Source: Gemmatimonadota bacterium (GTDB lineage Bacteria > Gemmatimonadota > Gemmatimonadetes > Gemmatimonadales > Gemmatimonadaceae). Taken from it: DNA of 64,000 bases. Within the stretch, counting starts at the first letter, position 1. Each line of letters starts with the position of its first letter. Under the pieces are notes generated by a model that was not told the DNA's origin, ran no database searches, and saw nothing but the letters and a program-made list of their open reading frames with translations. The stretch spans positions 158,929-222,928 of the forward strand of contig JAZJZK010000012.1 of the NCBI GenBank assembly GCA_040389905.1, given 5' to 3'. Position numbers and translations under genes: made by a program. This document shows, piece after piece, positions 2,333 through 47,967 of this stretch.

Positions 2333-3979
2333 TTAAGCGCCCGTGAAGAGGTGGCCGACTAACCACGCAAGCGCTCGCCACACCCCATATCCGAGCCACC
2401 CCATCGCGAGAAGTACAAGCATGGCGACCGGCAAGGTTATGAGTAGCAGATTGACAGTGTACCTCCACGCGGAGCTGTGGACGGGCAGGCGACCAATCGG
2501 TAAGACACGTGCGGCAGCAGCAATCAGCTGCTGGGCGACGATCCTCTGGTTGGCGTTAGCCTTTTGGATGATATCGTGGGCGCGCGTCCACTCGGGAGCG
2601 AGTCCTTCTGCGTACCACTCGGCCGGAGGCAATCCGTTGCATACCACATCTGGCATAGCTTGCTTCACCATCAGGTCCGCGACGAAGTATCCCTGCGCGA
2701 TCAGCAGCTCGAAGACGTCGGCCTCCAAGGCATCGAGGTCGGTGCGGACACGCGACAGTTCCGAAACCAAGGAGGGCTCAAGGCCTCGATAGCGCGGGGG
2801 CACGTCGATCCCGCCGTCCTCGGGCGCGGCGAACATGTTCCGCGCCAGGTCAGCGCGATGAAGAAGCACCTGTGCACAGGCAGTGAACTGCACGCCGCGT
2901 GCGGGCGACCCAATTGCCGTCAGCGCCTCCGCTTCCGCCGCCGCGGCTGTCAGTGCTTCGCGCACATCTCCTGGCACACCGCTCGCCGCAGTTTTCCGGA
3001 GAGATCTCCCGAGCAATCGCAGACGTGTGGCCGCCTCAGTTGGATGCACGCCATGCGTCATTTCGTGCGCGAGTTGCCGCGTAGTGGCGCCAAGACGGTC
3101 ATGCACCACTTCGACAATTCGCAGAAGGCGTGCTGGGCCAAAGCCATCTGCATACTCACGCTCTGGAGGCGCTGCCCCAGAAATGACCACATGCGTGATC
3201 TTGTGACCGCGAAGTGCATTAACCCCTTCATTGTCGTAGAGACCTCCATCTACCAGTTGAAAGCGTACGGAGCCCGAGGGCGCGCCATATCGCTCGCGCC
3301 ATCGGCTGACTGTACCTGGTCGCTCAACTGGCGGGCGCTCCCACCGTCCCTCGCTAAGCAGGTCGCCCCGCATTCGCTCCCACCGTGTATCGAAAGCGTA
3401 GGAATCCGTCAGTCCCGGATAGGCGGCCGATGCGGCGACTGCATCGGCGACTCGGATTCCTCTAGTGCGGTCGGTCGCGCCAGCGAGGTAGTCACCGGCG
3501 CGATCCGCCATGAATCGCCAACCTTTCCCAGTGCGGAGGTTCGTAGCATTGATCGCGATCCACAAGGGCAGCTGGTCAAGCGTAGCTCCTTTGAACATCC
3601 GACGGTCGAGTTCCTCAGCTATCAATCCGGTCCGGGACGCTCGCGACGAAACCATTGATCGCAAGGTTCGCAGGGCTCGTCTTGGCGTTCCTAGGAGCGC
3701 GCGCGACCGCAGGTTGTCGAGCAGAAGCGACTCGATCTCGACGATAAGCTCATCGACCGCGTAGCTTCCCGGCGCACCGCCAGATTGTGCGCAGCGCAAT
3801 GCGTAGAGTGCACCCGTTATGGAACCACCTGATACCGTCGACAACGCCTCGATGCGCGCAAGCACGCCGAGTTCCTCGAGGCGCTTGAGCACGCCGAGAT
3901 GGTATGCGGCAGCGCGAAACCCGCCGCCCGACAGTGCGAGCCCGAGATGCACCCGCGCGGCCGGCGCGCTTAGAGCCAT
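2333..3979 (-). CDS. patatin-like phospholipase with C-terminal transmembrane segment
   Basis: LALSGGGFRA, STVSGGS nucleophile, AASAAYPG, DGGLYDN; hydrophobic C-terminus; start placed at ATG 3979 after the upstream stop. Confidence 0.9.
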   Translation of the reverse strand: MALSAPAARVHLGLALSGGGFRAAAYHLGVLKRLEELGVLARIEALSTVSGGSITGALYALRCAQSGGAPGSYAVDELIVEIESLLLDNLRSRALLGTPRRALRTLRSMVSSRASRTGLIAEELDRRMFKGATLDQLPLWIAINATNLRTGKGWRFMADRAGDYLAGATDRTRGIRVADAVAASAAYPGLTDSYAFDTRWERMRGDLLSEGRWERPPVERPGTVSRWRERYGAPSGSVRFQLVDGGLYDNEGVNALRGHKITHVVISGAAPPEREYADGFGPARLLRIVEVVHDRLGATTRQLAHEMTHGVHPTEAATRLRLLGRSLRKTAASGVPGDVREALTAAAAEAEALTAIGSPARGVQFTACAQVLLHRADLARNMFAAPEDGGIDVPPRYRGLEPSLVSELSRVRTDLDALEADVFELLIAQGYFVADLMVKQAMPDVVCNGLPPAEWYAEGLAPEWTRAHDIIQKANANQRIVAQQLIAAAARVLPIGRLPVHSSAWRYTVNLLLITLPVAMLVLLAMGWLGYGVWRALAWLVGHLFTGA

Positions 3980-4007
3980 CCCTGACGCTCCGAACTCACT
4001 CCAGTGC

Positions 4008-6317
4008 TCACCCCAGGTCAATAATTGCACCGTCCGGCCGCAAGATGGTCGGCTGTCGTCCGACCGGCATGCTCGCGACGAACGTCGAGATGCCACTGTC
4101 ACCGACGATCATCATTACGGCTGGCAAATCATCTGCATCAAGCGCCTCCGTGATCCAGACGAACACCTTCATATCGTCCGCCGAGGGAAGCGGCGCACAG
4201 CCCTCCGGGTGCGAGTGCCACTCACCGATATAGTGGAGCTGCCCTGCCGTTGCCTCGCGCACACGCTCCACCTCCGCGATCAATCCCGCAGCTCCACGAA
4301 TGTAAAGCGTGGGCCACTCCTGGCTATCGGGCGGCGAGGGGATTGTGTCCACCACATAGACAACTCGACGGGCTACGTCGACGGCACCCAGGAGTACACC
4401 GCCGGTCTCGCTCGGCAGCTTCGCTATGCGTAGTTCGCGAAGGCGCGCGAGCAGGCCCTCGTCCGTCACGATGCGCCAGTCTCCGACGGAGACGTCAAAT
4501 ACCGGATGCACCGCCACCTCGACAGACTGGACCCCAAGCGAGGACTCATTGAGTCGCCACACCCGGATCACGGCGCCAGTCTCGTCGACCACGCGTTCCA
4601 AAGCCTGTGCCCCGAGTGCCGCGAGAGCGGTGACGCGTGCATGGGGTAGCTGACTGCTCACGTCGCGGCAGGATCTACCGTAGCGCTGACGATTGACCGC
4701 CCCCCGTAACGTGCCGGCAAGCGCGGGCTCATGGCTGATCGCACGGTAGTACTGCATCTCAAGCGCATCCAGGCGTACAGCTCGATTGGTTGACTCCGCG
4801 AGAAGCACGAGGTCCGTGCCCATGGGATTGAGGAAGAGCGAGATCCGGCGCGGAGGCGCGGTCACGTCACGCGCGAGCGCACGGGCCACGGCAACCGACG
4901 CAGACATGTCGACAATAGAAACGGCGTTTGCGTACGCTTGCTCCAACGTCGCACGCTGTTCACCAGGTGCAAGCATATTGGTGACGATTGAACGGTGCAG
5001 GTCGCCGTCCGCTGCGGCGTCGCGCATTACACCTGAAGCAACGCCAATTGCCTTGGCGAACCCCACCGCACTATTGCCGAGCGCGTGACGCGCGACGTTG
5101 TGCGGCAGGAATACATCGCCGTCCACCACAGTCCAACGACCGAATGCGGTGCGCGCCACAAACCCGAGCACTTGCGATCCGAGAGCGCCGGCCCCGATGG
5201 CGACGAAAGGTCTGTCGTCAACGTCGCGCCGTCCGTTGAACCGCGCTCCGTCTTCCCGGCGATGTTGGAAATATGCATAGAGAGGCAAGACGCTGATGGA
5301 CGAGCCCCCATCGCCACCTCCGGGTCCGAGGATAGTTCCCAGTCCATGTGGGGTCGCCTCCCACAAGCCCAGTGACTTCCCTACATCCGCAATGGATTCG
5401 ACTGTGAGGAATGCCCATGGCTGCTCGATTTCTGGCTCCACACTGTCATCACGCCGCAACGGCACCATGACCACAATTGCGACTTGTGCGTCGAGGCCGA
5501 TGCCCTCCTGCTTCCATTCTCGTAGCACAGCGGCCAACTGAGCGCGCAGGTCATCTTCCGGGGTCAAGAGTTCATGCAGGTTCGCAAGCGTCCCGGGCGC
5601 CCGGCGAATAGCGCCGTGCGTACGCGGGGTCGTTCGAACACACGCGACCACGAATCGACGCTCGCCCTGCTGAACCTGGTCTGGTGGCACCGCGACGAGC
5701 ACCTGGAGGCCACCGATCTGGCCGCGCCGCTCCAGACCTAGCGCCGCATTCTCTTTCCGCAGGATGTTCGGCAGGATGATCCACCCAGCGCCGCCCAGCA
5801 TCAGCGGCTCGAGCGGCTGATCCGCCGCGTGGAGTTCGCCGCGTGAAGTCAACCGAAGCCACTCGCGCACCAGCGTAACGAACCGGCCCGGCGTCCAGGC
5901 GGCGCGGAGTTCGTCGAACGCCACGTCGAAAAGGCAGAGGCTGCGCGGGTACTCGTACTCTCGAAGGTTTACATGCGAAACGTCGCGCGGAAAGTCTTCG
6001 CGCAGGGCAAACGTTTCGGGCGGAGGCAGTTCACCTTCGTCCGCCTGCGGCGCCACAAACCACGCGCCAATTCGCTCCACAAGCCGGATGTCGTGTGCCG
6101 TGCGTTGCGGTGTCTCCACTTCGACCTCCATGATCACGAGATCGCCCGCAGAGCCGCGCCGACAATCGATCAGGCGGGCGAACGGTATCCCCGCGATGAG
6201 ACGCCGCGCTAAGGTGCGCGCGTCTTCGCGTCGGAGGCCATCGGGTTCGCATACGAAAGGCGCGAGCCCGAGCAGATCGAGTCGCGCAACTGCCGACGGC
6301 GCGATGGGGACGGTCAC
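4008..6317 (-). CDS. prokaryotic E2 (family A) - E1/ThiF - JAB fusion (Cap2+Cap3-like)
   Basis: E2 HVN...SLCLF; ThiF GAGALGS, DGD, HNVARH, RYGRSC; JAB ETGG...GEWHSHP...PSADD. Confidence 0.92.
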   Translation of the reverse strand: MTVPIAPSAVARLDLLGLAPFVCEPDGLRREDARTLARRLIAGIPFARLIDCRRGSAGDLVIMEVEVETPQRTAHDIRLVERIGAWFVAPQADEGELPPPETFALREDFPRDVSHVNLREYEYPRSLCLFDVAFDELRAAWTPGRFVTLVREWLRLTSRGELHAADQPLEPLMLGGAGWIILPNILRKENAALGLERRGQIGGLQVLVAVPPDQVQQGERRFVVACVRTTPRTHGAIRRAPGTLANLHELLTPEDDLRAQLAAVLREWKQEGIGLDAQVAIVVMVPLRRDDSVEPEIEQPWAFLTVESIADVGKSLGLWEATPHGLGTILGPGGGDGGSSISVLPLYAYFQHRREDGARFNGRRDVDDRPFVAIGAGALGSQVLGFVARTAFGRWTVVDGDVFLPHNVARHALGNSAVGFAKAIGVASGVMRDAAADGDLHRSIVTNMLAPGEQRATLEQAYANAVSIVDMSASVAVARALARDVTAPPRRISLFLNPMGTDLVLLAESTNRAVRLDALEMQYYRAISHEPALAGTLRGAVNRQRYGRSCRDVSSQLPHARVTALAALGAQALERVVDETGAVIRVWRLNESSLGVQSVEVAVHPVFDVSVGDWRIVTDEGLLARLRELRIAKLPSETGGVLLGAVDVARRVVYVVDTIPSPPDSQEWPTLYIRGAAGLIAEVERVREATAGQLHYIGEWHSHPEGCAPLPSADDMKVFVWITEALDADDLPAVMMIVGDSGISTFVASMPVGRQPTILRPDGAIIDLG

Positions 6318-7438
6318 CCTGCCCGCGGTGCCTGCGTACTGACGGCCGCGAAACCCACCGAACCCCCGGGCTTCTTGACCGTCGCGCCACGCCAGTCGAT
6401 CTCGATCGCTAGGGGCGCCGGCGCCGCGATCGAGGGGTGCTCCATCGTTACGACATACTCCCCCGACTTGTGCCGCGCGATGCGTTTGTAGTAATTGGCC
6501 GCCTGACGATGCGGCGGCTGGTCGTCGTCATCGTTGCTTGGAATCGGTTTGCTGGAGGAAACTAGCCGCGGCTTGATGTCGCCATATGTCTCGTAGAGAT
6601 CAGCAACATCCGAATCGGGCTTCGTCTCGGTGGTCCCCTTCTCCGGCCCGAGCGATTTGTAGCTGCTATGGTGCGGCAGCTTCACAATGTCCCATTTGAG
6701 CCGATCAATGCGGCCGTGGAACCTTGTGATCCGCACGAAGTCCGCGATGCACTCGTAGGTCGTGTCGCCCATGAGCATCGCGCGGGTCGTACCGCCACCG
6801 TCGCGAAAGGACGCTTGGAAGATAAGGCAGTTAGTGTTGCGGTCGTCAAACGTGCCGTCATCCTGCCGATGGGCGAATGGCGAGTGGACGAACATCTCCA
6901 GTCCTTTCGTGTTATTCGGCTCCCACCCAGGCACGTAGAGTCCAGCATCCGTGATAAGGTGCTGGCGCGAAGTGAGTGTGAGCCCCCTGCTGTTCAGCCA
7001 CGCTTCGAGCTTCGCAGGCCGAGAGAACACGCGAACGCGCTCGCCCTTCTCCAAGCGATAGCGCGCCTCGGCCCGGAGGATCTTCCCGTCTTCGCAAAGA
7101 TCCTCTTTCGTCTCCGTGATCGCCCACGCGGGCACCCAGAGCTCGTCGATTTTGATGCGGCCGTCACCCTGGTACTTGGAAGCATGTTCCAGCCAGAAGA
7201 ACGACGCAGCTCCGCATACGTGATCGTCGTCGAAGTGGGTGAAGGCAACGACGTCGAAGCGATCACGCCCCGCTGCCTTCAGGTCGGCGCGCAGTTCATC
7301 AGGCAATTTCGCGCGCTTGTCCGTCGGGTCTGTCGCGCACCGCATGTCCGCGTAGTCGAAGAGAAGCTTCTGCCCGCCGGGAAGGTCAACGCGGTATGTA
7401 TCCGCGTTGCCTAGAGGATACAGTGTGATCGTCGACAT
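6314..7438 (-). CDS. metallo-beta-lactamase-fold hydrolase with C-terminal Gly tail
   Basis: LGNADT, THFDDDHVCG, LMGDT, KLPHHSS; ends STQAPRAG; GGAGG RBS; 4-bp overlap with the E2-E1-JAB gene. Confidence 0.9.
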   Translation of the reverse strand: MSTITLYPLGNADTYRVDLPGGQKLLFDYADMRCATDPTDKRAKLPDELRADLKAAGRDRFDVVAFTHFDDDHVCGAASFFWLEHASKYQGDGRIKIDELWVPAWAITETKEDLCEDGKILRAEARYRLEKGERVRVFSRPAKLEAWLNSRGLTLTSRQHLITDAGLYVPGWEPNNTKGLEMFVHSPFAHRQDDGTFDDRNTNCLIFQASFRDGGGTTRAMLMGDTTYECIADFVRITRFHGRIDRLKWDIVKLPHHSSYKSLGPEKGTTETKPDSDVADLYETYGDIKPRLVSSSKPIPSNDDDDQPPHRQAANYYKRIARHKSGEYVVTMEHPSIAAPAPLAIEIDWRGATVKKPGGSVGFAAVSTQAPRAG

Positions 7439-7570: not shown

Positions 7571-8026
7571 TTACGTGCCTGACAGAAGTAGCGGCAGGCC
7601 CATTGGCGTCATGCCGTCGAGAACAAGGTGAGACGCGTAACCGGCCATTGACCCAAGAATCGCCGCTACCGCAAGCCGCCACAGACGCGCATTGAGCATC
7701 TCATTGCGCCACGCATCAGAATCCTTCGCGAGCGTCGCGGCACGCCGCTCGCACTGCGCTGCCTGGTCAAGACAATGGGCGTGGTGGCGAGCACGGGCGA
7801 GTGCACCGATGCCTGCGGCTGCCGCCAAGCTGTGTGCCGTGCTTCGATGACGTGGATTCAAAGCCGGCTCGATCAGGTCGGGGAGCAGTGCACTACCCGA
7901 TGCGCTCAGCGTGCATGCCAGGACATGTGCGAAGCGGTCCTTCTCTTCAAAGAGGGTCATCGTCGCGAGGCCAGTCACGAGGCCTGCGATGGCTCCAGCA
8001 GCAAGGTGAGTTTTCTTGTTGGGCAT
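7571..8026 (-). CDS. YdjM-like metal-dependent membrane hydrolase
   Basis: TH, LPDLIEP, HRSTAHS and SHLVLD...TPMGLP motifs with hydrophobic helices. Confidence 0.8.
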   Translation of the reverse strand: MPNKKTHLAAGAIAGLVTGLATMTLFEEKDRFAHVLACTLSASGSALLPDLIEPALNPRHRSTAHSLAAAAGIGALARARHHAHCLDQAAQCERRAATLAKDSDAWRNEMLNARLWRLAVAAILGSMAGYASHLVLDGMTPMGLPLLLSGT

Positions 8027-8032
8027 AAGGAC

Positions 8033-8263
8033 TCAGCGACCCTGTGTGGCGACCACTAACCGCCAACGAATGGCGGAGCGGTTCGAGTGCTGATGATGGT
8101 TCTGGGGTGGTAGGGGGTTACCCTTGTTCGAGGCGACTTCGTGGGCGCACCCCTCGCATCGATAGATCCCCGAGTTGTCGGTGTTGGCCCCTGGTGTTTG
8201 AACGACATCGAACGCCGACGCCGTAGATTGCGACAAGTATCCAGAGTTCTTGTAGAGCGCCAT
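8033..8263 (-). CDS. small YjzC-like zinc-finger protein
   Basis: PG...SGIYRCEGC...PLPPQNHHQH...WRL; GGAGAGAGG RBS before ATG 8263. Confidence 0.75.
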   Translation of the reverse strand: MALYKNSGYLSQSTASAFDVVQTPGANTDNSGIYRCEGCAHEVASNKGNPLPPQNHHQHSNRSAIRWRLVVATQGR

Positions 8264-8338
8264 CCTCTCCTCCGTGAGTGGGCGCATCACCGAGATGGGC
8301 CCGTGCACGAAGGCTAAGTAGAGAGGGGCGGCAGGTCG

Positions 8339-8378
8339 TGGACGGAAGTTGGACGGAAATGGACCGCCGTTTCCGTCA
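8339..8378. promoter_or_regulatory. tandem TGGAC(GGAA) repeats, candidate response-regulator operator
   Basis: TGGAC at 8339, 8350 and 8360 (10-11 bp spacing) plus inverted TTTCCGTC at 8370, in the gap upstream of the 8263 operon. Confidence 0.45.
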
Positions 8379-9227
8379 AATCAATGCGACTGTCGACGCC
8401 AGGACGCCAGAAAGGCGTGCAATTTCGGCGTGGCTGCGGCCCGCAAGCCAAGTCGTATTGATCTTCCCGATCGCAATTGCATCAGATAGAGCGTAGGTGC
8501 CGCCATCGTTCACGATGACAGTCGTCGGATCTTCGAAAGCAGCAAGTAGCACCTTTCGGAGTCGGTCAACCCGCTTATAGGCGATCTGCGCGTTGTTTCC
8601 GAAGTCGCTTAGTGCTACTGGCCGTCCATTCGCTCGCCCGAGCAGGAGATGCAGCAGCACACACAGCTCCGAATCCGTCAATTGGAAGTCGCGGCCGCCG
8701 AGTGTCAAGACGGTCCGCCCTTTTATTGACCGACCGGTGATCTCGAGAATGACCCCGACGGTCGTAGAGACGGTCGCGTCACCACACGAACCATGCTGCT
8801 CACGACCGCTCTTTCGGAGTGCCTCGCCCACTCTGCGAACGACATCCGCCTCGCTGTATGGCTTTTGGATGATATCGTCGGCCTCAAGCTTCATCAGCTC
8901 CACCGCTTCCTGCACTTCATTCGCGTGCCCACTGACAACGATTATCGGGAGCCAGACGGTTTGCATTCGGGGACTGCCGAAGCGTTTGCGAATATCGGCC
9001 AGCAACGAGATTCCGACATTCGCTCGACCTTTGATGTGCTGCGCGCTGCTGGGAATGCTGAGGTCGAGAAGTACCACGCAAGGCGTATGCGACTCCAAAA
9101 ACACGAGCGCTGCGTCGCGCGTCGCTGCGATGGTCGGATCACAGTCCATCGAACGGAGAATATCCGCGAGGTCCTCAGCGGTCGGCGGATGATCCTCAAC
9201 GATCAGTGCACAGTGAGGAGTGCTCAT
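8376..9227 (-). CDS. response regulator (REC + winged-helix-like output)
   Basis: LIVEDH, LLDLSIP, VVSGH, IQKP; C-terminal LTDSELCVLLHL...VDRLRKVL...GGTYAL. Confidence 0.85.
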   Translation of the reverse strand: MSTPHCALIVEDHPPTAEDLADILRSMDCDPTIAATRDAALVFLESHTPCVVLLDLSIPSSAQHIKGRANVGISLLADIRKRFGSPRMQTVWLPIIVVSGHANEVQEAVELMKLEADDIIQKPYSEADVVRRVGEALRKSGREQHGSCGDATVSTTVGVILEITGRSIKGRTVLTLGGRDFQLTDSELCVLLHLLLGRANGRPVALSDFGNNAQIAYKRVDRLRKVLLAAFEDPTTVIVNDGGTYALSDAIAIGKINTTWLAGRSHAEIARLSGVLASTVALI

Positions 9228-10336
9228 CGAGTACCGCTGCGGAATTGTGGGACCGCGATGGCAATCAAGGTGCCGTCGCCCACCTTGCTCTCGATGTTAA
9301 GCGTCCCCTCATGCTCAGACTCGACGATCTTGATTGCGAGGGGAAGACCGACACCTGTACCCTGAGGCTTGCTCGAGCTGAACAGCGTGCGCGCATCAGC
9401 AAGCGCTTCGGGTATCATTCCGCAACCGCAATCGCGAACGCGAATAAGGATGGCGCCTTCGCATACTTCCGCGTCGATCTCGATCGGCCGACGGTCAATG
9501 AGTCCGCTGTACGCCTCAACAGCGTTGTGAAGCACATTCGATAACGCTTGGACAAATCGTGTTCGCGATACTACAAACTCAAGGGACGCGTCGACACGAT
9601 TCCTAATCTCCACCCGCATTGTCTCCGACACTCCGTCGGTCGTTCGAATCGCTTCGTCCAGGAGCCCGCGTACTCCTTCGCTCGAATACTCGAGATCAGG
9701 TAACGCTGCGTACTCGCGCATCGCATTGAGCACTGCATTCACTTGCTCAACGTCCTGTTCGACCCGACGGACCCTTTCAACCACGCGCGCGTCTGCCTCA
9801 GCGGCGAGAAGCTTGCGAAGTTCCTCGACTTCACGTTCCAGCGGCGTCAAGTACTTGATCACCTCATGGTACAGTTCGCGCGCGAACGTGTTCGTCATAT
9901 CGCTCGCCGCGCGATAGACCGCAGCGCGACCCTGCGCCCCGAAGCGTATGTAGATCGCCTCCAAGATGCCCTCAAGTCGCCGCTCGTGCTCACGACCGAG
10001 CAGGCCCGCCGCGCGCCAATCGCGCCGCCGTAAACTCGACGACTGCGCCGCCTGCTGTACCCGCGCATTCGCATCCGCTGCAAGGCGTGCAAGGAGCGCA
10101 TCCAAGCCAGCATGTCGACATTCTCCGGCCACGAGTGCGACCGCGCGCCGCACCTCCCATTTCTCGTGGGTGGCGAGGATCACAAGACTATCGACTATCG
10201 CTTGAGAATCGGCCGATCCGACGGGCTCGCGCTGTAGCCACACGCTGGCGGCGCGAATTCCCTGTTCGGTTTCCATCCAGGACACGGATCGAAGCCTCGC
10301 CAGAACCTCCTCGGCGCTTCCACGGTCAGTGACCAT
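9224..10336 (-). CDS. cytoplasmic histidine kinase with N-terminal HEAT-like repeats
   Basis: HEKWEVRRAVA and DANARVQQAA repeats; H-box ELYHEV; NVLHNAVEA, DCGCGM, LFSSSK, GTGVGL; no TM segment. Confidence 0.88.
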   Translation of the reverse strand: MVTDRGSAEEVLARLRSVSWMETEQGIRAASVWLQREPVGSADSQAIVDSLVILATHEKWEVRRAVALVAGECRHAGLDALLARLAADANARVQQAAQSSSLRRRDWRAAGLLGREHERRLEGILEAIYIRFGAQGRAAVYRAASDMTNTFARELYHEVIKYLTPLEREVEELRKLLAAEADARVVERVRRVEQDVEQVNAVLNAMREYAALPDLEYSSEGVRGLLDEAIRTTDGVSETMRVEIRNRVDASLEFVVSRTRFVQALSNVLHNAVEAYSGLIDRRPIEIDAEVCEGAILIRVRDCGCGMIPEALADARTLFSSSKPQGTGVGLPLAIKIVESEHEGTLNIESKVGDGTLIAIAVPQFRSGTR

Positions 10337-12200
10337 ACCTCTTCATGCGTTCGAGAAACGCCGAAGCACCGCCTTCGAGGATGCGCTCTACAGCTTCCTT
10401 GCATTCATCGACTGTACCGACCTCGGCCACTCTTGCTTGCTGTCCGTCCGAGTCGAACACAAAGATGCGATCAGCGTCACCAAGAACGGGAATGTTCGGG
10501 TTGTGCGTCACGAACACCACTTGGCGCGTCAATTTCACGGCTTTTAGTGCGCCAACCACGGTGTCGAACACGAACGCATTGTCGAGATTGTCCTCTGGTT
10601 GGTCAATCAGCAGAGGGCGATCGCTCTGCCTGAGAAGGATTGGAAGGACCACTGTACAGCGCTGACCCGTCGAGAGGTGGGACGATTCCTTGTACGTCTC
10701 ACCGTCGCGCAGTTCAATACACGGAACGTCCCCGAGGTCAATGGTTTGAAGATCGTACGCGGAGCCGCTTTCTCGGAGCGTGTCGATAATGCGTCGAGCA
10801 CGTTCGGCGTCAATGCCCGCGCGCTCGGCCAGTTCCTCCGTTGCTTCGGCAAACACGAGCGCTGCGAGTTCGGTGGGCAGCAGAGCAGTCACCAGTCTGT
10901 CAGCTGCTAACCCCTGTTTCATGCGCTGCCCTTTCAACTGTTCGGCAACGAATGCGCGATAGGCATCGAGGTTGGCCGTTTGTCGGATGGACACGCGTAG
11001 CGAAGGAACGTCGGCCGACAGTTGTGCCGCAATCGCCCTGCGACGATTGTACCGTTCGTCACGCGCCTCTGACAAACGGGCGAGCAGTTCGGAGCGAGCA
11101 TTAATCGCAGCATCTCGCACCGCTGTTCGGCCATTTAGCTCGCGCACGGCGGCCTGTGCCGTGGCCAACGCCGCCTGCAGTACGCCGCGTTCTCGTGCTT
11201 GCTCTGCATGCTCCTGCGATTCCGCAAGGATGGCAGCGTACTCTGCCTCTTGTGCCACATGCTGATTCGTCAGGAGTTGACGCTGTTCGTCGATTGTCCG
11301 TTCCAGCTGGGCAGCCGCAGTCGCCGCAGTATCGGCCGCACCACGCAACGCTTCCGCGAACATCTCAATATTTCGCTGAAAGGCGGCTACCAATGCTGCA
11401 TTCTCACCGACGAGCAGGTCATCATCAAAGGCAGCATTCGCCGTGTCGCGAAATGTTGTCTCTAGAGCGGTGATATCTCGTGTCGCCCGCTGAACAGCTA
11501 CGAGCCCAACTTCCGCTATACGCTCCTCGCGAATCCGCCTCGCCTTTGCTGTATGCGCGCGTGTCAGTCGCTCGCCGTCCGGACCATCCGGCTGCGTCAG
11601 ACCCCGAAGACGCTCTTCAATCCCCGCCACTTCCGCGGCCCGCGCACGTAATCCATAAATCTCGTCGTCCAAATGCAGCAATTGGGCGGCGGAAGCCTCC
11701 AGAGCTCGTCCGAGTTCTTCGAGTTCGCGAGCTAGTCGACGGTTTGCCGATTCATCGAAGCGGTCAAGCAATTGAAGCTGCGCTTCCGCGTTCGACGCGA
11801 TCTCTTCGATTTCATTTTGGCTAAACACGTCTGCGCTGAAGATTTCGTCGCGGTCGAGAGAGATAGGCACGATTTCGCCGAGCGCGCTCCGGACGGTAAT
11901 GCTATCGCCCTTTCCGCGTTCTGCGGAGTAGGAGATTCCTGCTTTGGTGTTGACGTCGATCGTCAGGCGACCGGAAGCCAAATTGCCATCTACGAGAGAC
12001 TCTAGGGCGCGCCGACGTTGCGGGTGGATCTTCTGATCAGGTAGTAGGCCCAGCGCGAACCTAAGAAACTCCAGGGCAGTCGTCTTGCCGGTGCCCCTTC
12101 CGCCGATAAAGCAGTTGAGACCGTCAGACAGATGTAGGTCCGCACCAGCGAGGAAGCCGCCGGCCACGCGCAAGCGGGTAATTCTATGATGTGAGGTCAT
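10326..12200 (-). CDS. SMC/RecN-like coiled-coil ABC ATPase (TrlF/Ppl-ATPase-like)
   Basis: GGRGTGKT, FSQNEIE, long coiled coil, LSTGQ, LLIDQPEDNLD, VTHN, ILEGG. Confidence 0.88.
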   Translation of the reverse strand: MTSHHRITRLRVAGGFLAGADLHLSDGLNCFIGGRGTGKTTALEFLRFALGLLPDQKIHPQRRRALESLVDGNLASGRLTIDVNTKAGISYSAERGKGDSITVRSALGEIVPISLDRDEIFSADVFSQNEIEEIASNAEAQLQLLDRFDESANRRLARELEELGRALEASAAQLLHLDDEIYGLRARAAEVAGIEERLRGLTQPDGPDGERLTRAHTAKARRIREERIAEVGLVAVQRATRDITALETTFRDTANAAFDDDLLVGENAALVAAFQRNIEMFAEALRGAADTAATAAAQLERTIDEQRQLLTNQHVAQEAEYAAILAESQEHAEQARERGVLQAALATAQAAVRELNGRTAVRDAAINARSELLARLSEARDERYNRRRAIAAQLSADVPSLRVSIRQTANLDAYRAFVAEQLKGQRMKQGLAADRLVTALLPTELAALVFAEATEELAERAGIDAERARRIIDTLRESGSAYDLQTIDLGDVPCIELRDGETYKESSHLSTGQRCTVVLPILLRQSDRPLLIDQPEDNLDNAFVFDTVVGALKAVKLTRQVVFVTHNPNIPVLGDADRIFVFDSDGQQARVAEVGTVDECKEAVERILEGGASAFLERMKRYGH

Positions 12201-12854
12201 CAAAATCACTGGCGTGGCGATCGGGGCTGATCATGCGAGGCACGCTAACCTACGCCAGCGAGCCGCGTTGGCAAGGAGATTCACCGCGTTCACGAGGCGC
12301 GCGACGTACCACGGTGGGTAACACGGAGACAGCGGACGGCGACAACCGAAGCAAGGTCCGCTCGCTGTTCGTGCGACTCCGTCAAACCGGGCAGCAGCAG
12401 ACCAACGACATCGACGGGCCGTTACTGGACAACCATCATGTTGAGGCAACACCACCCGAGTGGCCAGTTCGGTCACTGCGCAAGCGGTAGTATACGCATA
12501 AGCGCCAGCGTGCGCGCGCTTCGGTGAGCGGAGCGCCGCAGATAGCGACGTTGGATTTGCACCACGCGCTGGCGCCAAGCATTCTTGTCCTTCGCTCATA
12601 CCCGACGAATGATGCGCGGAACTGGACGGTGAACATGCAGCGGTCTAGCGGAAACGCCCACGAGATTCAGGACCAGCTGTTGGTTCTGGGCCTTCTGCGA
12701 TTGACTTCCCGGATCGCGAGTGCCCATCAATGAAGAAACCGATACTGACCTGGACAACAAACTCTTGCCGTTTTTCTTCTTGTTGGCATGCGGTCATTGT
12801 GCCGAAGCCCGTAGCGCCCACGAAGGGTGACTAATCCACCGGGGTGTGCAGCTT

Positions 12855-13752: not shown

Positions 13753-16296
13753 CTACCACCCGCCCTCGACTTCCACGACTGGCACCTGAAGAGCTGTTGC
13801 CACTGGCGTCCAGATGTCCACGTCCGCCGTATCCGTTTCGATGCCGATCACAAGTGCGTATCGTGCGCCGAACCGGCTTCGATCGCGCTTGGGCTGATCT
13901 TTCCACCATCCGGACACTGGATAAATGCCGATAACGCTCCGGTCGGCAAGTTCCTCCGCCGTCCCACTCCAGACGTCCGAGTGCAGCGACCCGCGGTTGC
14001 GAGCTTCCGGTCCGAGGCACCATTCGTCGGAATCACTGTCGACGGTGGGACGCTTCTCCTCCTCGGCAAGCGCTCGCTGATTGAGTCGCTTGGTGAAGTC
14101 GTCCTCGCTTTCGTTTGGAGAAATCACCGCATATCGAAGGCCATGCGATGCATACCGGTGGCGGCGCCGCCATCCGCGCTGGCCTGGATTCGGTTCGATG
14201 AAGTATGAGAGCGTCACTCGAAGACGAACGGCCGCGCCGCCCTGAGCCCCGACCTCACGCAATGCGTCTACTGGCCAAGGCAGACGGTGCATGTGCATTT
14301 CACGCATCTTACCGGCCACGAATGGGTGAATGACGCCCTCCGCGATCAAGGTAAGTGCGTCGTTCGCACTTCGCAGTGTGCGATCGAGACTGGGTACTCC
14401 GAAGCCATAGCGACGTACGAGCCGAGACCTTGCTCTCTTCGATTCACTGCCGTCGAAGCCTTCCTGCATTGCGGGCGTCCAGCGTGCACCATGAACTATG
14501 AGCGCCCGGATCGTTTCAGGCCAGAGCGCTGGGTACTCGGCTCGAGTGATGGTCGCTATTCTCGCCACCTGAACAGCAGCTGCACTCGTCGCGAAGGACA
14601 AACCGAGCGGTGTTGCCGGATCGGCGTGGGTCGACAGGAGACAAAGATCAGGTGTCGGGAAATCGATGTTGGTGCCGTCGGTCGCGACGTTTCCGCCTTC
14701 GAAGACGACGTCAGGTTTGATCGGCCAACCCTCCGCGAATGCAACTGACGTCGTGCTCCACGGAGAGAGATCGCCGGGTCTGGCCACAGGTGACCACGCG
14801 CTCCACGTTGGCTCAGTAATGAGCGCCTTTTCGGTGTATGCCCCGACGGCCAAGGCATTCCACGCTTGCGCTGGATCGTGCACGGGTTCGACGTCACTCC
14901 GCGCCAGGTGATCGGCGTCCAGATTCCTGACGTTCCCCGCGCTTATGACGAAGAGCCGTTCGGCGTTTTGCTCGGCATCGCCGACGTAGCGAAGCCCGTG
15001 ATCGGACGGATCGAAGCTGCGTCCCACGGCCATGGCATCAATCGCCGCAGACCAGGATGTTGGCTGGCCACGATCGCGCTGGTCTGCCGCCGTGATCGCG
15101 AGAGAGAAGACGCGTGGGCGCTCGGGCGATGTGATCTCCGGACGCGCTACAGCCTGCGCCGTGATTGCACCGTACAATTCCGGCACGTTCGCGCCGTGAG
15201 GTGGTAGGATCTTGACTGACTCCAGCCGATGCCTCACGAGAACCGGATCTCTGCTGGCGAATATGGGCGCGAGATCGCCGAAAACAGCCAAGCCGGCCAT
15301 CTCCGTGCCGTGGCCTTTACTACCTTCTCCGCCGCCGTCGTCATGCGACCCCCATCCGACGTTCACGGCGGTGGCGTCCTCTGATGAGAGAAACTGCTCG
15401 AGAAGGGGATGCCCGCGATTTACCCCGGTATCGAGCAGGCAGATTGCGGGCGCGTCTGCCGGCGGAAAGACAGCGCGGGCAAGTAAGTCCCCAATCCATT
15501 CAACTTGCTCGGTCGCAGGTGTGCCTATGAACGGCGCGGCCGACTGTTTTGCTCGTCGCAGCTCGGCAAGATCATGCAGAACATCGAGGGAACCTGCCAG
15601 CTCACTCGACGTCGCGTGCACGAGGATCACCAAGCGGTCATCAAAGGCAAGGCGGCTATCGGCGATTTGAATGCTCGTCGCATCGGCGAACGAAAGAAAC
15701 CGTTCGAGTTCGCGCCCCTCGTCACGGCGCAGCCAGACTTCCCACCAGATCGACTCGCCATCCGCCGGGAAGCTGGTTGCCTCTTCCGTCCACAGAGCCC
15801 TCAGCGTTGCCCGTCGGAGCGCAGCGATGCGGTCCACCATCTCCTTGTGTTTTGGCTCGCCCTTCTGTGTGACCTTCGTTGCGTATTCCTCGAATCGAGA
15901 AAAGAAATGCTTCAGCGCCCCGTCAGGAACAAAAACGGTGGCATACTGAACCGCCGGTTCACTCTCTGCGGTTCGGACCCTTTGCACCGTGAGCAGTTCG
16001 ATTCCGAGACGTTTGTTCTCGAGTGATTCCAGTTTCAGCTCCTCGCCTGAGAGACTTTCGAACTGGATGTACAACCCAGGCACGGCCCCCTGGACATTCA
16101 CTCCCGCAACAGTTCGCTCTGCTTCGGCGTCACCCACTGCTCCACCCAGAGCAGCCCCCAATGCCTCCGCGTGCGCGACGCGGTCCGCTGGGCGGTCAAA
16201 CTGCCGAGCCTTCACCGTGCGCGGATGTGGGCTGAACGGCTGCGCCTCGGGAGGCGCGCTCACGACCAGATGCTTGCGATTCCTCGGAGCCGGCAT
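13753..16296 (-). CDS. ietS: S8 family serine peptidase (IetS-like)
   Basis: LLDTGVN, HGTEMAG, ISAGN, IKPDVVFEGGN, ATSAAA, WPETIRALIVH. Confidence 0.88.
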   Translation of the reverse strand: MPAPRNRKHLVVSAPPEAQPFSPHPRTVKARQFDRPADRVAHAEALGAALGGAVGDAEAERTVAGVNVQGAVPGLYIQFESLSGEELKLESLENKRLGIELLTVQRVRTAESEPAVQYATVFVPDGALKHFFSRFEEYATKVTQKGEPKHKEMVDRIAALRRATLRALWTEEATSFPADGESIWWEVWLRRDEGRELERFLSFADATSIQIADSRLAFDDRLVILVHATSSELAGSLDVLHDLAELRRAKQSAAPFIGTPATEQVEWIGDLLARAVFPPADAPAICLLDTGVNRGHPLLEQFLSSEDATAVNVGWGSHDDGGGEGSKGHGTEMAGLAVFGDLAPIFASRDPVLVRHRLESVKILPPHGANVPELYGAITAQAVARPEITSPERPRVFSLAITAADQRDRGQPTSWSAAIDAMAVGRSFDPSDHGLRYVGDAEQNAERLFVISAGNVRNLDADHLARSDVEPVHDPAQAWNALAVGAYTEKALITEPTWSAWSPVARPGDLSPWSTTSVAFAEGWPIKPDVVFEGGNVATDGTNIDFPTPDLCLLSTHADPATPLGLSFATSAAAVQVARIATITRAEYPALWPETIRALIVHGARWTPAMQEGFDGSESKRARSRLVRRYGFGVPSLDRTLRSANDALTLIAEGVIHPFVAGKMREMHMHRLPWPVDALREVGAQGGAAVRLRVTLSYFIEPNPGQRGWRRRHRYASHGLRYAVISPNESEDDFTKRLNQRALAEEEKRPTVDSDSDEWCLGPEARNRGSLHSDVWSGTAEELADRSVIGIYPVSGWWKDQPKRDRSRFGARYALVIGIETDTADVDIWTPVATALQVPVVEVEGGW

Positions 16297-16308
16297 GGTC
16301 CTCGGGAC

Positions 16309-17298
16309 TTACTTCGAGTGACTCGCGCGCCGATCCTCGAGAGCCGCGACCAATTCCCCAGTTCGCACCTCGCGACGGTGAGCGAGGATGGCATGCTTTG
16401 CCGCTTGCTGCGCTGCCCTTGCCAGCTCCGCGTGGCTTAGTCCTTCAACAACCGCGGATACCTTCGCCCAGCCAACCTTCGACGTGTCGAGCAGCGCCAG
16501 CCTGCCGCGTAGAACCTCCACCGCCTCCTCAGTCGTCGGAAGTCCATACTTGATAACCGAATCGAATCGTCTCAGCAGGGCACGGTCAAGCAGGTCCGGA
16601 TGGTTCGTAGCAGCAACGACGAGACTGTCAGACTCATCCAGCTCCATGAACTGGAGGAACGAGTTCAACACTCGCCGAATCTCGCCAACTTCATTCTTCG
16701 CGCTGCGCTCCGCGCCAAGCGCGTCGAACTCGTCGAACAGGTAGACGGCGCGCGACTCACGGATCGTGTCGAAAATCAAACGAAGTTTGGCAGCCGTCTC
16801 GCCAAGATATTTCGTGATCAACCCGTCGAGCTGAATGGCGAAGAGAGGAAGGCCGAGCTCGCCCGCCAAGACCGCCGCCGTCATCGTCTTTCCGGTCCCC
16901 GGCGGACCAATCAGCAACAGCTTCCTCAGAGGCGAGAATCCATGCTCCCGAATCTGTGTTCGTCCGCGCTGTTCAACGAGGACGTGTTCGAGCCGGGCAC
17001 GCACGTCCTCTCGAAGCGTCATGTCAGTAAGGCGCGCTTGGGGAAAGCTCGCGGAAAGCAGCCCGACGAGTTCGCCGCGAGGCTGAACGATCGGGACCGC
17101 GCGAGACTTCTGTCCGGCGCGCGCCGTATCGCGCCGTTGCTTCGCCTCGTCTACGAGGTCGCGAAGCTCCTGCGCGAATTTCGTCTGGCCCAGCCGGGCA
17201 GCGCGAGCGGCGACCTGCATGGCGATGGCGTAGAAACGCTCGTCATCGCCTTCTGCGTGTGTGCGGACGAGTGCCTTGAACTGATCTGCTTTGGCCAT
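16309..17298 (-). CDS. ietA: AAA ATPase (IetA-like)
   Basis: GPPGTGKT, YLFDEFDA, AATNH, LDRALLRRFD; directly upstream of the S8 peptidase; start placed at MAKADQ. Confidence 0.88.
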   Translation of the reverse strand: MAKADQFKALVRTHAEGDDERFYAIAMQVAARAARLGQTKFAQELRDLVDEAKQRRDTARAGQKSRAVPIVQPRGELVGLLSASFPQARLTDMTLREDVRARLEHVLVEQRGRTQIREHGFSPLRKLLLIGPPGTGKTMTAAVLAGELGLPLFAIQLDGLITKYLGETAAKLRLIFDTIRESRAVYLFDEFDALGAERSAKNEVGEIRRVLNSFLQFMELDESDSLVVAATNHPDLLDRALLRRFDSVIKYGLPTTEEAVEVLRGRLALLDTSKVGWAKVSAVVEGLSHAELARAAQQAAKHAILAHRREVRTGELVAALEDRRASHSK

Positions 17299-17440
17299 GT
17301 CAGACGCATGATCAAGGGTTGTGCGCCGATTCTCTGCGCGCTCGTGGCGCCTCCGTTTCAAGCTGAATCTACAGCGCGCGACTCGGCACTGTCGAGTCTC
17401 GTAGATTGCGGCGACGACTGGCTCCACGGAAGGGATCGAA

Positions 17441-17509
17441 AATAGACTCGCCCGTAGCTGTTTCCGGCCCGTAGAGCATAGACGTGACTGTAGCGGGGCT
17501 GTGCTCGCC
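17441..17509. repeat. about 70-bp diverged repeat, copy 1 (copy 2 at 22190-22258)
   Basis: AATAG-ACTCGCCCGTAGCTGT...AGCATAG...GGGCTGTGCTCGCC shared by both copies. Confidence 0.75.
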
Positions 17510-17739
17510 GTCACGAAGGGCGCCGCAGGGACAATCTGCTCGGCGTGCTGCTGCCGCCTCTTCGGGGCTCCGTCGACGGAGACGAACGACGCGAGAGTCG
17601 TAATCCGGCGTGCTGCTGCCGCCGAGCGTTTGACCATTACCGACGAGCAGGCCGTCGATTGGAAAGTTGAGAAAGCTCGCTCCGGCCGACCCACGATAGC
17701 CGCTACTCCAACTACTGCATCGCGTATCTTGATAAGACC

Positions 17740-19686
17740 ATGGGATCCCTCGACGACCTCCCGCAGCGCGGTGTAACGCACGAGACGGCGGAAGCCGCTG
17801 AACGCGCGTTTGCGAACGCAGTCGCGGACGCCCTGCTATTTGTCCATCAAGGCTGCGACCGGCACGACTACGGGAGCGATGCGGTCATAGAAGCGGTACG
17901 CGAAGGAGCCGTCACGAATCTTCGCATTCACGCGCAGCTCAAAGGCACCACGGCGACGGCTAACAGCGACGGCTCGGTCAGTGTCTCGGTAGCGCGAACG
18001 ACTCTGAACTATCTCCTCAATCAGCCCTCGTCGCTTTTCGTCTGCTACCACGTGCCCAGCGGCCGCTTGCTCGCGCGATACGCCGAGGACGTGTACGCGG
18101 AGTATGCACATCGCGACGAGGATTGGCTCGCCCAGGACTCAATTACCGTTCGCTTCCACGCGTCGTTCGATCGAGAGTTTCAACATCTGCTGCATCGCCG
18201 TCTACTGGCAGCAGGAGAAGGACACCGGGAGACACGGCTCGACTGGATCGCAAGTCCACCAGGATACGCGGCGGAGCTCGTGCGGCAGACGCCGCGTATC
18301 ATCGACGTCCCAGCTGATCCCGATCGAGCGCAACTGATCTTGGCCGCGCTGTACGAAGCAGGCGAAGACGATGTGATTTCTGCTTCCTTCGCGGCTTTCG
18401 CTGCCGTTTTGGATGGGGTGGAGGGCGCCTTGGATGCCGCCTACATGGCGGAAATTAACCGCGGCCTGAATCACGCTGCCTTCGACAAGCAACGTGTGCG
18501 TCGAGGTATCGAGGTGCTACGGACTGCCGCCACATCGCGGCGAATCGAACCACTATCTGCAGGATACTGTGAAGCGAACGCGAGGCTGGCGCTAGGCGAG
18601 CATGCACTTGCCATCGAGGGATACAGCGGCATTCTCCCACAACTTGAACAGCTCAACGCGCATATCGCGGCGATGTGTGCCAAGAATCTTGGCAGCGCGT
18701 ACGAAGCGCTCGGTGATGTCTCCTCGGCACATCAGTTCTATGCACGAGCGGTGGAACTCGATTCAGAGCTCGGTGAAGCACATTTCGCGCTAGCGATGTG
18801 TGCACGGCGCGATGGCGACATCCAGATGGCCTTGTCGCATTTGGATAGAGTGGCGCCCTCCCCGCGCTCCGCTATCCGTATGCCGAGTGTCAGCGGCTGG
18901 CGTATCGCACTCCTATTTCAAACCGGAGATTACAACGCGGCCTTCCGCGACATCAGCACTCTCCGTGACCAAGCGCGTTCAGCGCGGTGGATATGGCCCT
19001 GGTGCGCTAGGCAAGTGGCAATTTACGGCCGAGCAACCGTTGATTCGACGAAGCTCGCACTCCGCTTTTGGAACGGGTATCTGGAGGAGCATCCCGACGT
19101 TGCTCCGGCTAAGCGCGAACGGTTGCTGTGCCTCGCGCGACTCGACCGCCATAGTGTTGCGACTCGCGTTTCGTTTGACGCGTTCGTTGCCGAGGTGTCG
19201 GAGGTGGCTGCCGCTGGTGACTCCCAGGCGGCTTTGCTGTGGGATGTTGCCGGACACTGGGCCCAGCGTGAAGGAAGGTGGGACGACGCGGAGGCAGCGT
19301 TCAGGCGCGCTCACGAGTTGGATAGTTCGCGATTCGCGTACTGTCTTGCTACCGCGCTCAACTTCCTAGATCGCTATGATGAAGCATTGCGTGTTCTCAA
19401 CGCGTTGCCCTTGGTCGACATGGATGCGCAGGCCTGGTTTCAGCTCGCTGTCGCTCGCGACGGGATTGGCAACTTAGAGGGCGCCATAGCAGCCTACCGT
19501 TTAGCAATCGGACTTGAGCCGGCGTATGCTCTCGCCTGGTTCAATTTGGGCGGGGTCCTTTTCAACGCTGGAGACTTGGTAAGCGCTCGCGAGATCTGGA
19601 CCGACGCATTGAATCGGTTCCCGGAGCATGAACTGGCGGCCACGATCCGCAATGAGTTCGCGTTTGTTGTCGGTGACGGTCACTAA
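17740..19686 (+). CDS. DUF4365 (PD-(D/E)XK-like) domain + TPR protein
   Basis: HDYGSDAVIE...AQLKGT N-terminus; multiple TPRs (AKNLGSAYEALG, AWFNLGGVL). Confidence 0.8.
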   Translation: MGSLDDLPQRGVTHETAEAAERAFANAVADALLFVHQGCDRHDYGSDAVIEAVREGAVTNLRIHAQLKGTTATANSDGSVSVSVARTTLNYLLNQPSSLFVCYHVPSGRLLARYAEDVYAEYAHRDEDWLAQDSITVRFHASFDREFQHLLHRRLLAAGEGHRETRLDWIASPPGYAAELVRQTPRIIDVPADPDRAQLILAALYEAGEDDVISASFAAFAAVLDGVEGALDAAYMAEINRGLNHAAFDKQRVRRGIEVLRTAATSRRIEPLSAGYCEANARLALGEHALAIEGYSGILPQLEQLNAHIAAMCAKNLGSAYEALGDVSSAHQFYARAVELDSELGEAHFALAMCARRDGDIQMALSHLDRVAPSPRSAIRMPSVSGWRIALLFQTGDYNAAFRDISTLRDQARSARWIWPWCARQVAIYGRATVDSTKLALRFWNGYLEEHPDVAPAKRERLLCLARLDRHSVATRVSFDAFVAEVSEVAAAGDSQAALLWDVAGHWAQREGRWDDAEAAFRRAHELDSSRFAYCLATALNFLDRYDEALRVLNALPLVDMDAQAWFQLAVARDGIGNLEGAIAAYRLAIGLEPAYALAWFNLGGVLFNAGDLVSAREIWTDALNRFPEHELAATIRNEFAFVVGDGH

Positions 19687-22426: not shown

Positions 22427-22771
22427 TCAAGACAATTGCTTCCGTAGATCGTCCGGCACCCGATACGAGGCGTCATCCATCGCGATCCCCTTGCTCTTCG
22501 CCTTCTTTCTCATGTGATCAGTCAGAGTCGCCTTGAAATACAATAGGTCCTCTCGACTCCTGATATCACATCGCGACGCCTCCTCCATCCACAGCCGCTG
22601 GCTTGCTTCCTGAATGAGGTCGTCCCTCACGTCGCGATCCGTGGTGAGTTGGCGGGCATAGATCTCCACGCTGGTCTTCACGTGCCTCCACACGCGGATG
22701 TATGCGTTGTGCACATCCCCTGTCGCTCCTCCCTCCGGAGGCGGCGTAAACGCTTCATTTGTCCGCATCAC
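22427..22771 (-). CDS. sigma-70 region-2-like small protein (copy 1)
   Basis: YARQLTTDRDVRDDLIQEASQRLW resembles ECF sigma region 2; no region 4; start uncertain. Confidence 0.5.
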   Translation of the reverse strand: MMRTNEAFTPPPEGGATGDVHNAYIRVWRHVKTSVEIYARQLTTDRDVRDDLIQEASQRLWMEEASRCDIRSREDLLYFKATLTDHMRKKAKSKGIAMDDASYRVPDDLRKQLS

Positions 22772-23343
22772 GCCACCATCGACGAGAGACACTCGTCCAA
22801 CACTTCCAATTCCGCCCACCGCAGGAACCTGTCTCCCTGCGTGGGACTCATTCGCCGCCGCAGCTTCCCGGTGTACCCCCGGTACAGAAGACCCCGGTGG
22901 TCCGTATCTCCTTCGATCGATGACAGGTCATAGTAGAAGATGCGGTCGTCGATCAACCCGTTCCCATTCACCGAGGTTACCAGCCCGGCGTGAATGAACT
23001 CCCTCGTGCGGAATGAACGCTGGAGGAGGATGTCCCCGCTCATGGGCGACTCGTAGAGAATGCCGCGTTCTGCTCCGAACACCGAGAGCGTCTGCGGTGA
23101 CAGGCCGAGCGGGACCGGCCACGACGACTTCGCTACGCTCTCATCATAGTAGGCGCGAAAGCCGAGCTGCTGAAGAAGTCGTACATCGAGGGGCGCCAGC
23201 GCCGCTGCAGGATTGTCGGCTGTAGCTCCAGTCGGAATCGGCGGCGCATGCTGCGCGGTCGGTTTCCAGTTGAGTTCCTGCTGCACCGCGTTGCGCGCCA
23301 TCTGCACCAGCACCTGCGGAGACAAACGAGCCATGAGAGTCAC
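22768..23343 (-). CDS. degenerate CHAP/NlpC-P60-like protein (copy 1)
   Basis: SSWPVP, GDILL, FIHAGLV, SIEGDT, GDRFLRW; no catalytic Cys visible. Confidence 0.55.
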   Translation of the reverse strand: MTLMARLSPQVLVQMARNAVQQELNWKPTAQHAPPIPTGATADNPAAALAPLDVRLLQQLGFRAYYDESVAKSSWPVPLGLSPQTLSVFGAERGILYESPMSGDILLQRSFRTREFIHAGLVTSVNGNGLIDDRIFYYDLSSIEGDTDHRGLLYRGYTGKLRRRMSPTQGDRFLRWAELEVLDECLSSMVA

Positions 23344-35930: not shown

Positions 35931-35970
35931 CTGACCGCATCTGCCGCGTGAATGCCCACGCCGTTCTTGA

Positions 35971-45663: not shown

Positions 45664-47966
<2,303 letters not shown>

Positions 47967-47967
47967 G

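Follow-up and report, generated by a model that had tools for sequence, protein, structure and literature searches.

A patatin-like phospholipase gene linked to a 6A-MBL anti-phage operon in a Gemmatimonadota bacterium

Results

Gene Layout of the Locus

We analyzed a 64,000-nucleotide stretch of DNA from a Gemmatimonadota bacterium (assembly GCA_040389905.1, contig JAZJZK010000012.1, forward-strand positions 158,929 to 222,928), which we refer to as the window and whose positions are used throughout. Three co-oriented, head-to-tail genes on its minus strand encode a metallo-beta-lactamase (MBL)-fold enzyme, a single-chain E2-E1-JAB ligase, and a patatin-like phospholipase. Judged by sequence, the first two are the core of the named 6A-MBL anti-phage system and the third is no passenger and belongs to that system, because the ligase gene lies directly upstream of the patatin in nearly all independent lineages of its clade. 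The two-gene core is already known; the patatin-bearing three-gene variant is apparently undescribed.

6314..7438, minus strand: MBL-fold enzyme of 6A-MBL, 374 amino acids (aa), with a ComEC/Pce-type phosphodiesterase fold and an HxDxDH metal motif at residues 68–73
6317..6328, minus strand: C-terminal PRAG of the MBL (residues 371–374), predicted conjugation end by homolog conservation, disordered in the model
4008..6317, minus strand: 6A-MBL cap2_3, E2-E1-JAB in a single chain, 769 aa, from NF058523 and Pfam domains
2333..3979, minus strand: patatin-like phospholipase (PF01734), 548 aa, with a Ser50/Asp244 dyad and a clade-specific C-terminal extension
2492..2494, minus strand: Gly496 of the patatin, in an R-x-x-hydrophobic-hydrophobic-G-R motif directly before the transmembrane helix, from the homolog alignment
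2339..2470, minus strand: C-terminal helix of the patatin (residues 504–547) with a predicted transmembrane segment, from hydropathy and the model

A GGAGG stands upstream of the MBL gene start, and the MBL stop overlaps the start of the E2-E1-JAB gene by 4 nucleotides (nt) (GTGA, 6314–6317), so that the two adjoin in one operon. The most likely start of the patatin is the ATG at 3979, which has a GGAG 8 nt before it, lies 28 nt past the JAB stop, and gives a 548-aa product identical to the database record of the protein. The initial annotation, an earlier reading made from the sequence alone, had opened the gene at GTG 4102 (the longest open frame, overlapping the JAB end by 95 nt), a start that we rejected in favor of ATG 3979. 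A promoter scan returned 0 sigma-70 sites, and terminator-like sites occurred at chance level (5 versus 4.3 expected).

The 6A-MBL Core

Both core genes pass the curated NCBIfam cut-offs of 6A-MBL, a name that the initial annotation lacked, although it had rightly placed the locus among known MBL-group operons with Cap2/Cap3-like fusions. The MBL scores 380.6 bits against a cut-off of 220 for NF058524 ('6A-MBL_enzyme', described as anti-phage) over profile positions 2–346 of 346, and the ligase scores 595.8 bits against a cut-off of 320 for NF058523 ('6A-MBL_cap2_3', likewise described as anti-phage) over positions 1–665 of 665. The Pfam domains of the ligase follow in the order Prok-E2_A (61–174), ThiF (372–428), and Prok-JAB (621–720), the E1 part carries GxGxxG, and the closest solved structure is Cap2 (7to3, E 4e-19). 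The JAB is fused rather than encoded as a separate Cap3 gene, and it reaches 41.3 bits against the NF050170 cut-off of 200. The catalytic motifs had been described as intact from the single sequence, and alignment of the query with 125 of the 150 best representatives (n = 126) bears this out: H115 and C128 of the E2 (SLCLF) are conserved in 125 of 126 ligases, and C550 of the E1 (YGRSC) together with JAB residues E637, H701, H703, S712, and D715 in all 126. The locus thus combines an MBL of the right family, an E2-E1-JAB order in a single chain, intact catalytic residues, and adjacent genes. Iyer, Burroughs and Aravind 2006 (PMC1779556) classed this core as operon type 6a, 'usually with two genes', in which an E2-E1-JAB triple stands beside a specialized metallo-beta-lactamase.

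The structure model of the MBL (predicted local distance difference test, pLDDT, 90.6) comes closest to the MBL domain of ComEC (9ic4, E 1.3e-14) and to the phosphorylcholine esterase Pce (1wra, E 2.1e-11), so that the protein is most likely a metal-dependent phosphodiesterase. HxDxDH is kept in 119 of 120 homologs (the query and the best 119 of 3031 matches). The chain ends in STQAPRAG, which the initial annotation took for a flexible tail; in the model, residues 358–374 are indeed disordered (pLDDT<50). Despite this disorder, PRAG is kept in 111 of the 120 homologs, 50 of which stop at its Gly and 61 of which add 1–9 unconserved residues, while R372 and G374 are invariant across 110 aligned sequences. 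By analogy, a fixed Gly followed by a disposable tail is what would be expected if a JAB protease trimmed a ubiquitin-like precursor. The C-terminal Gly of the MBL therefore looks like the conjugated moiety, as, according to the initial annotation, had been proposed, and this copy, which ends at Gly, would need no trimming. The proposal is consistent with the relevant section of PMC11601596, according to which type II CBASS (cyclic oligonucleotide-based anti-phage signaling system), Pycsar, and MBL pathways conjugate their enzymes to unknown targets via an Atg7-related E2-E1.

The absence of a CD-NTase, a Pycsar cyclase, and a ubiquitin-like protein (Ubl) gene from the locus, also part of the initial annotation, withstood a Pfam scan of 11 + 98 open reading frames (ORFs) that covered the window plus 19.5 kb of sequence on its left, in which no CD-NTase, cyclase, or ubiquitin fold was matched and ORFs under 100 aa were mostly unscanned. 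The 4-nt overlap and the 28-nt gap leave no room for a Ubl gene between the three genes, and no flanking short ORF ends in Gly. The SMODS profile has 0 matches in the genome, the assembly of which is 84.6% complete, and the one class III cyclase of the genome, its only PF00211 match, lies on contig C6 and not on C12.

The Patatin and Its Optional Anchor

The third gene product matches PF01734 (E 5.5e-20) with SGGGxRA, Ser50, and DGGxYDN (D244) intact, and the DGG is present in 120 of 120 listed proteins of a homolog set made up of the query and 119 listed relatives at 41–77% identity. Its structure model (pLDDT 92.9) matches the folds of PlpD, CapE, patatin, and CapV at 12–20% identity, the CapE and CapV matches having E values of 2e-6 and 2e-5 at 15–20% identity, and PADLOC effector models match it at E 6e-5 only. 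Outside 6A-MBL, the closest long relatives (proteins P0242–P0290) carry TPR-S and NB-ARC domains in fusion with the patatin, which is likewise a conflict-system context.

Past the point at which ligase-fused patatins of other loci end, this protein continues through a pair of helices and a loop into a long hydrophobic helix (504–547), which has a Kyte-Doolittle 19-mer peak of 2.48 and is one long helix in the model. The C-terminal transmembrane helix of the initial annotation thus stands as a prediction for this patatin and falls as a defining trait: it is present in 73 of the 120 homologs, and in the other 47 the chain stops no more than 14 residues from column 496. On a quick FastTree tree of 114 patatins of nearly full length, at least four transmembrane changes are required, with the helix lost at least four times. 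Because the helix is absent from so many homologs and changed so often, the predicted anchor is optional and dispensable in the clade. Gly496, immediately before it, is kept in 112 of 120 proteins, that is, in 73 of 73 with the helix and in 39 of 47 without it, where it often lies 1–5 residues from the end; its losses fall mostly in one subclade. Gly496 may form a turn that contacts the membrane, or it may mark a site cut by the JAB.

Linkage of the Patatin to 6A-MBL across Genomes

Synteny of the patatin, which had been set beforehand as a check on the initial annotation, held. A patatin-led metagenome scan yielded 24 loci, 16 of them at 43–75% identity, and in 14 of these 16 the ligase lies directly upstream of the patatin; one locus (L018) lacks it and one has no upstream DNA. 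After copies more than 90% identical were merged, 10 of 11 independent lineages have the ligase in this position. Among the eight distant patatin loci (27–34% identity), only L030 adjoins a 6A-MBL core, and there the patatin lies upstream. A further comparison, which is indirect, points the same way: 22 of 119 MBL homologs match one of the 119 patatin homologs in the exact size of the assembly's longest contig, with 0.6 expected by chance, the four closest MBLs not being among the 22.

The frequency of the patatin beside homologous operons, a second check, was obtained from three MBL-led samples. A GTDB scan returned 13 loci, five of them real: L001 and L004 carry a patatin, L002 and L003 have none, and L005 is cut off (2/4 informative). 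From a phylum sample of 401 genomes, eight other loci were taken, one of them cut off; five carry in-frame E2-E1-JAB-patatin fusions, one a separate patatin approximately 3 kb upstream, and one none (6/7 informative). In a plasmid sample of 68 records, 40 of them listed, 11 of the 12 closest were examined, with one duplicate skipped and 28 distant rows left out; patatin lies within 1 kb of the ligase in six, is absent from four, and one locus is broken by Tn3 (6/10 informative). Together, patatin is present in 14 of 21 informative 6A-MBL loci, so that the combination is common rather than rare and two-gene definitions of 6A-MBL probably omit a working part. L007–L013 and most of the 166 genomes with weak MBL matches held unrelated MBLs and were dropped. 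Among viral contigs, no MBL relative was found, and one of six distant patatins adjoins 6A-MBL genes.

By their Pfam lists, 24 of 115 long patatin homologs are ligase-patatin fusions. None of these 115 longer homologs is a fusion of the clade studied here, which is weak evidence. A 1288-aa ORF at L014 that resembled such a fusion proved to be a stop-free shadow frame, the ligase having its own stop at 7921 in another frame. A quick tree separates at least three 6A-MBL-linked patatin clades, namely this patatin's own (support 99), the fused forms together with two that are unfused (100), and a clade of short soluble patatins like that of Gluconobacter (100); its outgroup is thin, since the domain-cutting rule removed 16 of 19 unrelated long patatins, as well as one row from this patatin's own clade. 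The three-gene locus of cultured Gluconobacter oxydans 621H (L084) lies on pGOX1. This patatin's clade was found in 0 of the 400 other genomes of the phylum sample and is thus rare and mobile.

Csx27-like proteins with three to four transmembrane segments also adjoin 6A-MBL (L002:11547–12314, L003:11495–12136, L085:8094–8882, L081:7831–8508, and L068:9025–9747). They occur in three of the seven patatin-less loci and in two further loci beside a patatin; two were assigned by PADLOC (E 1.6e-10 and 4.3e-7) and the others by BLAST links. A 2019 study linked Csx27 relatives to ubiquitin-system genes, as recounted in part of a review (PMC8209922). The Csx27-like protein is possibly an alternative membrane partner. 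With either a patatin or a Csx27-like protein recurring beside the core, 6A-MBL repeatedly keeps a membrane partner.

Two other neighbors recur at homologous loci. Upstream of some (L030:5146–7822, L070:4831–7592, and L075:4147–6902) lies a further module, in which a separate JAB gene and another MBL, shorter than the first, accompany a ThiF/E1 gene (the latter shown for L030), so that two conjugation modules stand in tandem. In 4 of 11 plasmid loci (L076–L079), a divergent WYL-domain gene precedes the MBL; none was seen at that position in the window.

Discussion

Proposed Mechanism and Alternatives

The reading that we tentatively prefer, and consider nearly as likely to be right as wrong, is that conjugated MBL activates the patatin by contact or attachment and that the lipase then destroys the membrane of the infected cell. 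The initial annotation had suggested an added effector or conjugation target that is activated with no cyclic nucleotide made at the locus, and no cyclase was found there. During infection, the ligase would likely attach the MBL by its C-terminal Gly to a target. By Cap2/Cap3 chemistry, from which we infer these steps, the E1 would adenylate Gly374 of the MBL, the thioester would pass via Cys550 and then Cys128 to an amine acceptor, and the JAB would trim pro-tails where present and reverse the link. The conjugated MBL would then likely switch on the co-inherited patatin, either by protein contact or by the patatin receiving it covalently, as ubiquitin does with ExoU, and the activated patatin would cut membrane phospholipids and kill the infected cell. 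Were the patatin the acceptor, its conserved lysines K32, K152, K155, and K439 would be the candidate sites. The patatin with its predicted anchor is likely the cell-killing arm, with the helix predicted to pre-position the lipase at the membrane. The ComEC-like hydrolase activity of the MBL is a possible second effector arm, which would explain patatin-less loci. In favor of the preferred reading we count the curated family matches of both core genes, the conservation of their catalytic residues and of PRAG, the intact Ser-Asp dyad, the synteny of the patatin and its fusions to the ligase in relatives, the link of at least three patatin clades to 6A-MBL, the defense-island setting, the ExoU precedent, and the published account of MBL pathways that conjugate their enzymes. 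Complex prediction for E1-JAB (340–760) and patatin (6–510), both supplied as alignments, scored 0.00 and carries no weight either way.

Several observations weigh against activation of the patatin by conjugated MBL. The patatin of L018, 75% identical to this one, has no ligase in 3.3 kb of upstream sequence, the patatin is convergent in L082 and approximately 3 kb upstream in L068, and the synteny counts come from small samples in which kin are not independent. Because 7 of 21 informative loci have no nearby patatin and operon type 6a was described as having usually two genes, the lipase is not required by 6A-MBL as a whole. The fused patatins belong to another clade, with 26–39% identity to this patatin except for two short matches, and thus fusion is no proof of contact for the clade studied here. 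Finally, the ubiquitin-binding domains of ExoU are not matched in the patatin fold (template-modeling score 0.19). The standalone L018, the patatin-less loci, the variable position and orientation (upstream in L030, in addition to L082 and L068), and the recruitment of several patatin clades would all suit a parallel accessory that is separately triggered and shares the 6A-MBL transcript and mobility, with no biochemical link to conjugation. We nevertheless regard such an accessory as unlikely, given a position fixed in 10 of 11 lineages across 43–75% identity, repeated in-frame fusion to JAB, and a clade that is found in none of the 400 other phylum-sample genomes and hence is no common island filler.

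The least unlikely of the specific alternatives, though still improbable, is a small-molecule relay in which the MBL replaces the CD-NTase, so that conjugation activates the MBL and the product of its phosphodiesterase activity, either a nucleotide fragment or a glycerophospho-compound, binds the patatin and turns it on, as cyclic dinucleotides do with CapV and CapE. The gene layout does mirror that of type II CBASS (signaling enzyme, Cap2/Cap3, phospholipase), the MBL fold is nearest to phosphodiesterases (ComEC and Pce), and the patatin fold matches CapE and CapV; but those matches are at low identity, the PADLOC effector matches are weak, the patatin is nearer in sequence to the TPR-S/NB-ARC patatins, and the signal of a hydrolase would presumably be less specific than that of a cyclase. 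Lipid conjugation strikes us as more doubtful than either the relay or the parallel accessory. ATG7 and ATG3 attach ATG8 to phosphatidylethanolamine, and cap2_3 might similarly tie the MBL to a membrane lipid that keeps it inactive or localized until the JAB (at the amide) and the patatin (at the acyl chains) release it. This would fit the Atg7-related label of the E2-E1 class, whose targets are given as unknown in the section of PMC11601596 noted above, a neighboring slot repeatedly held by a membrane protein (a patatin, or a Csx27-like one in three of the seven patatin-less loci), and a fusion that links patatin directly to JAB. However, a phospholipase beside a defense system is more simply a killer, as with CapV, and two loci carry both a patatin and a Csx27-like gene.

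Least probable of all, in our view, is that the patatin is itself a JAB substrate, with a cut after Gly496 freeing the lipase from its anchor (or trimming a tail of 1–14 residues) and exposing a conjugatable C-terminal Gly. What speaks for this is the retention of Gly496 in every anchored form and in 39 of 47 anchor-less ones, often close to the end, and through at least four losses of the transmembrane helix. Yet the Gly496 motif is unlike PRAG, seven full-length homologs without the helix, mostly of one subclade, also lack the Gly, the fused and short patatin clades stop before this region, and a basic and hydrophobic membrane-contact loop with a Gly turn fits equally well. We speculate, as an idea that is itself improbable although less so than any of these four alternatives, that 6A-MBL is a membrane-centered ubiquitin-like circuit. 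The ligase would attach the MBL either to phospholipid, in the manner of ATG8, or to the anchored patatin, which would itself serve as release switch or second conjugation substrate and offer Gly496 as a possible JAB site. If this were true, a bacterium would use, for its own immunity, a phospholipase under the direct control of protein conjugation and independent of any nucleotide messenger.

Relation to Known Systems

The locus resembles described 6A-MBL in having an MBL gene followed by a single-chain E2-E1-JAB gene, both over curated cut-offs with motifs intact and no cyclase or Ubl found, and differs in having the patatin gene closely linked as a third member, with a product of 548 aa that is extended at its C-terminus and predicted to contain a transmembrane helix. 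The patatin shares its fold and Ser-Asp dyad with CapV and CapE, to which it is only 15–20% identical and which, unlike this protein with its predicted anchor, are not known to be membrane-anchored. As in type II CBASS (CapV/CapE; 10.1101/2022.03.31.486616), a Cap2-homologous E2-E1 and a Cap3-related JAB accompany a patatin effector and an enzyme that has a conserved small residue at its C-terminus, whereas here no CD-NTase was found, the JAB is fused, and the proposed conjugated enzyme is an MBL hydrolase. In contrast to type II Pycsar, no pyrimidine cyclase stands beside the E2-E1. Bil and Bub, whose operons are of the anti-phage or stress type, share the chemistry of E1, E2, and JAB but encode a beta-grasp Ubl (PMC11601596), of which none was found here, where E1, E2, and JAB form one chain.

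Precedents for a phospholipase switched on by a ubiquitin-type protein are ExoU, a patatin that needs ubiquitin as activator (PMC12871566), and the bacterial phospholipase VpdC (PMC9860323). Both are secreted effectors that use host ubiquitin, whereas the patatin here is a self-directed operon gene. The variant bears on whether ubiquitin-like tagging is coupled directly to a membrane effector in bacteria, much as ExoU exploits host ubiquitin, and a subtype with a built-in, easily assayed lipase offers a direct read-out of Cap2-class conjugation.

The relevant parts of PMC13276650 and PMC13700489 credit the 6A-MBL name and anti-phage link to van den Berg et al. 2024, and a preprint, in the portion concerned, counts 6A-MBL among jumbo-phage defenses. 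The main text of Iyer 2006 (PMC1779556) does not once use the word 'patatin', and 'MBL' is absent from the main text of the bioRxiv version of Ledvina. No description of a patatin in 6A-MBL was found in the literature searched, a search outside which the primary 6A-MBL papers (van den Berg 2024, Ledvina 2023 Nature, and Makarova 2019) fall. The window contributes a separate clade of long patatins, in which the anchor is optional and the Gly in front of it conserved; the system itself is not of a new kind.

Genomic Setting

The operon lies in a defense-rich island, with a type I restriction-modification system to its left. At 91–2079, a convergent DUF5131 gene and the three-Cys-motif partner TcmP match the PADLOC PDC-M30/M41 candidate defense models. 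The segment at 7571–8308, directly upstream of the MBL and on its strand, holds the gene of a YdjM-like membrane hydrolase of 151 aa along with a 91-aa ORF that contains CxxC and HHQH and matches nothing in Pfam. They are followed at 8376–12209, further upstream of 6A-MBL, by a tight minus-strand run encoding a response regulator, a histidine kinase with HEAT repeats that shows no obvious membrane sensor, and a TrlF/Ppl-like ATPase that lacks the N-terminal part of those families; this run could be a sensing or regulatory module. An S8 peptidase and an AAA ATPase at 13753–17781 are IetAS-like (PADLOC IetS E 1.8e-30; under the NCBIfam cut-off). Two ORF runs, at 22430–24231 and 33976–35948, have equal lengths (130, 191, and 124 aa) and spacing, lie 11.5 kb apart, and show no Pfam matches, which suggests a duplicated segment. 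Farther along, at 45664–49569, genes for the alpha, gamma, and beta subunits of ATP synthase stand amid an island-like region.

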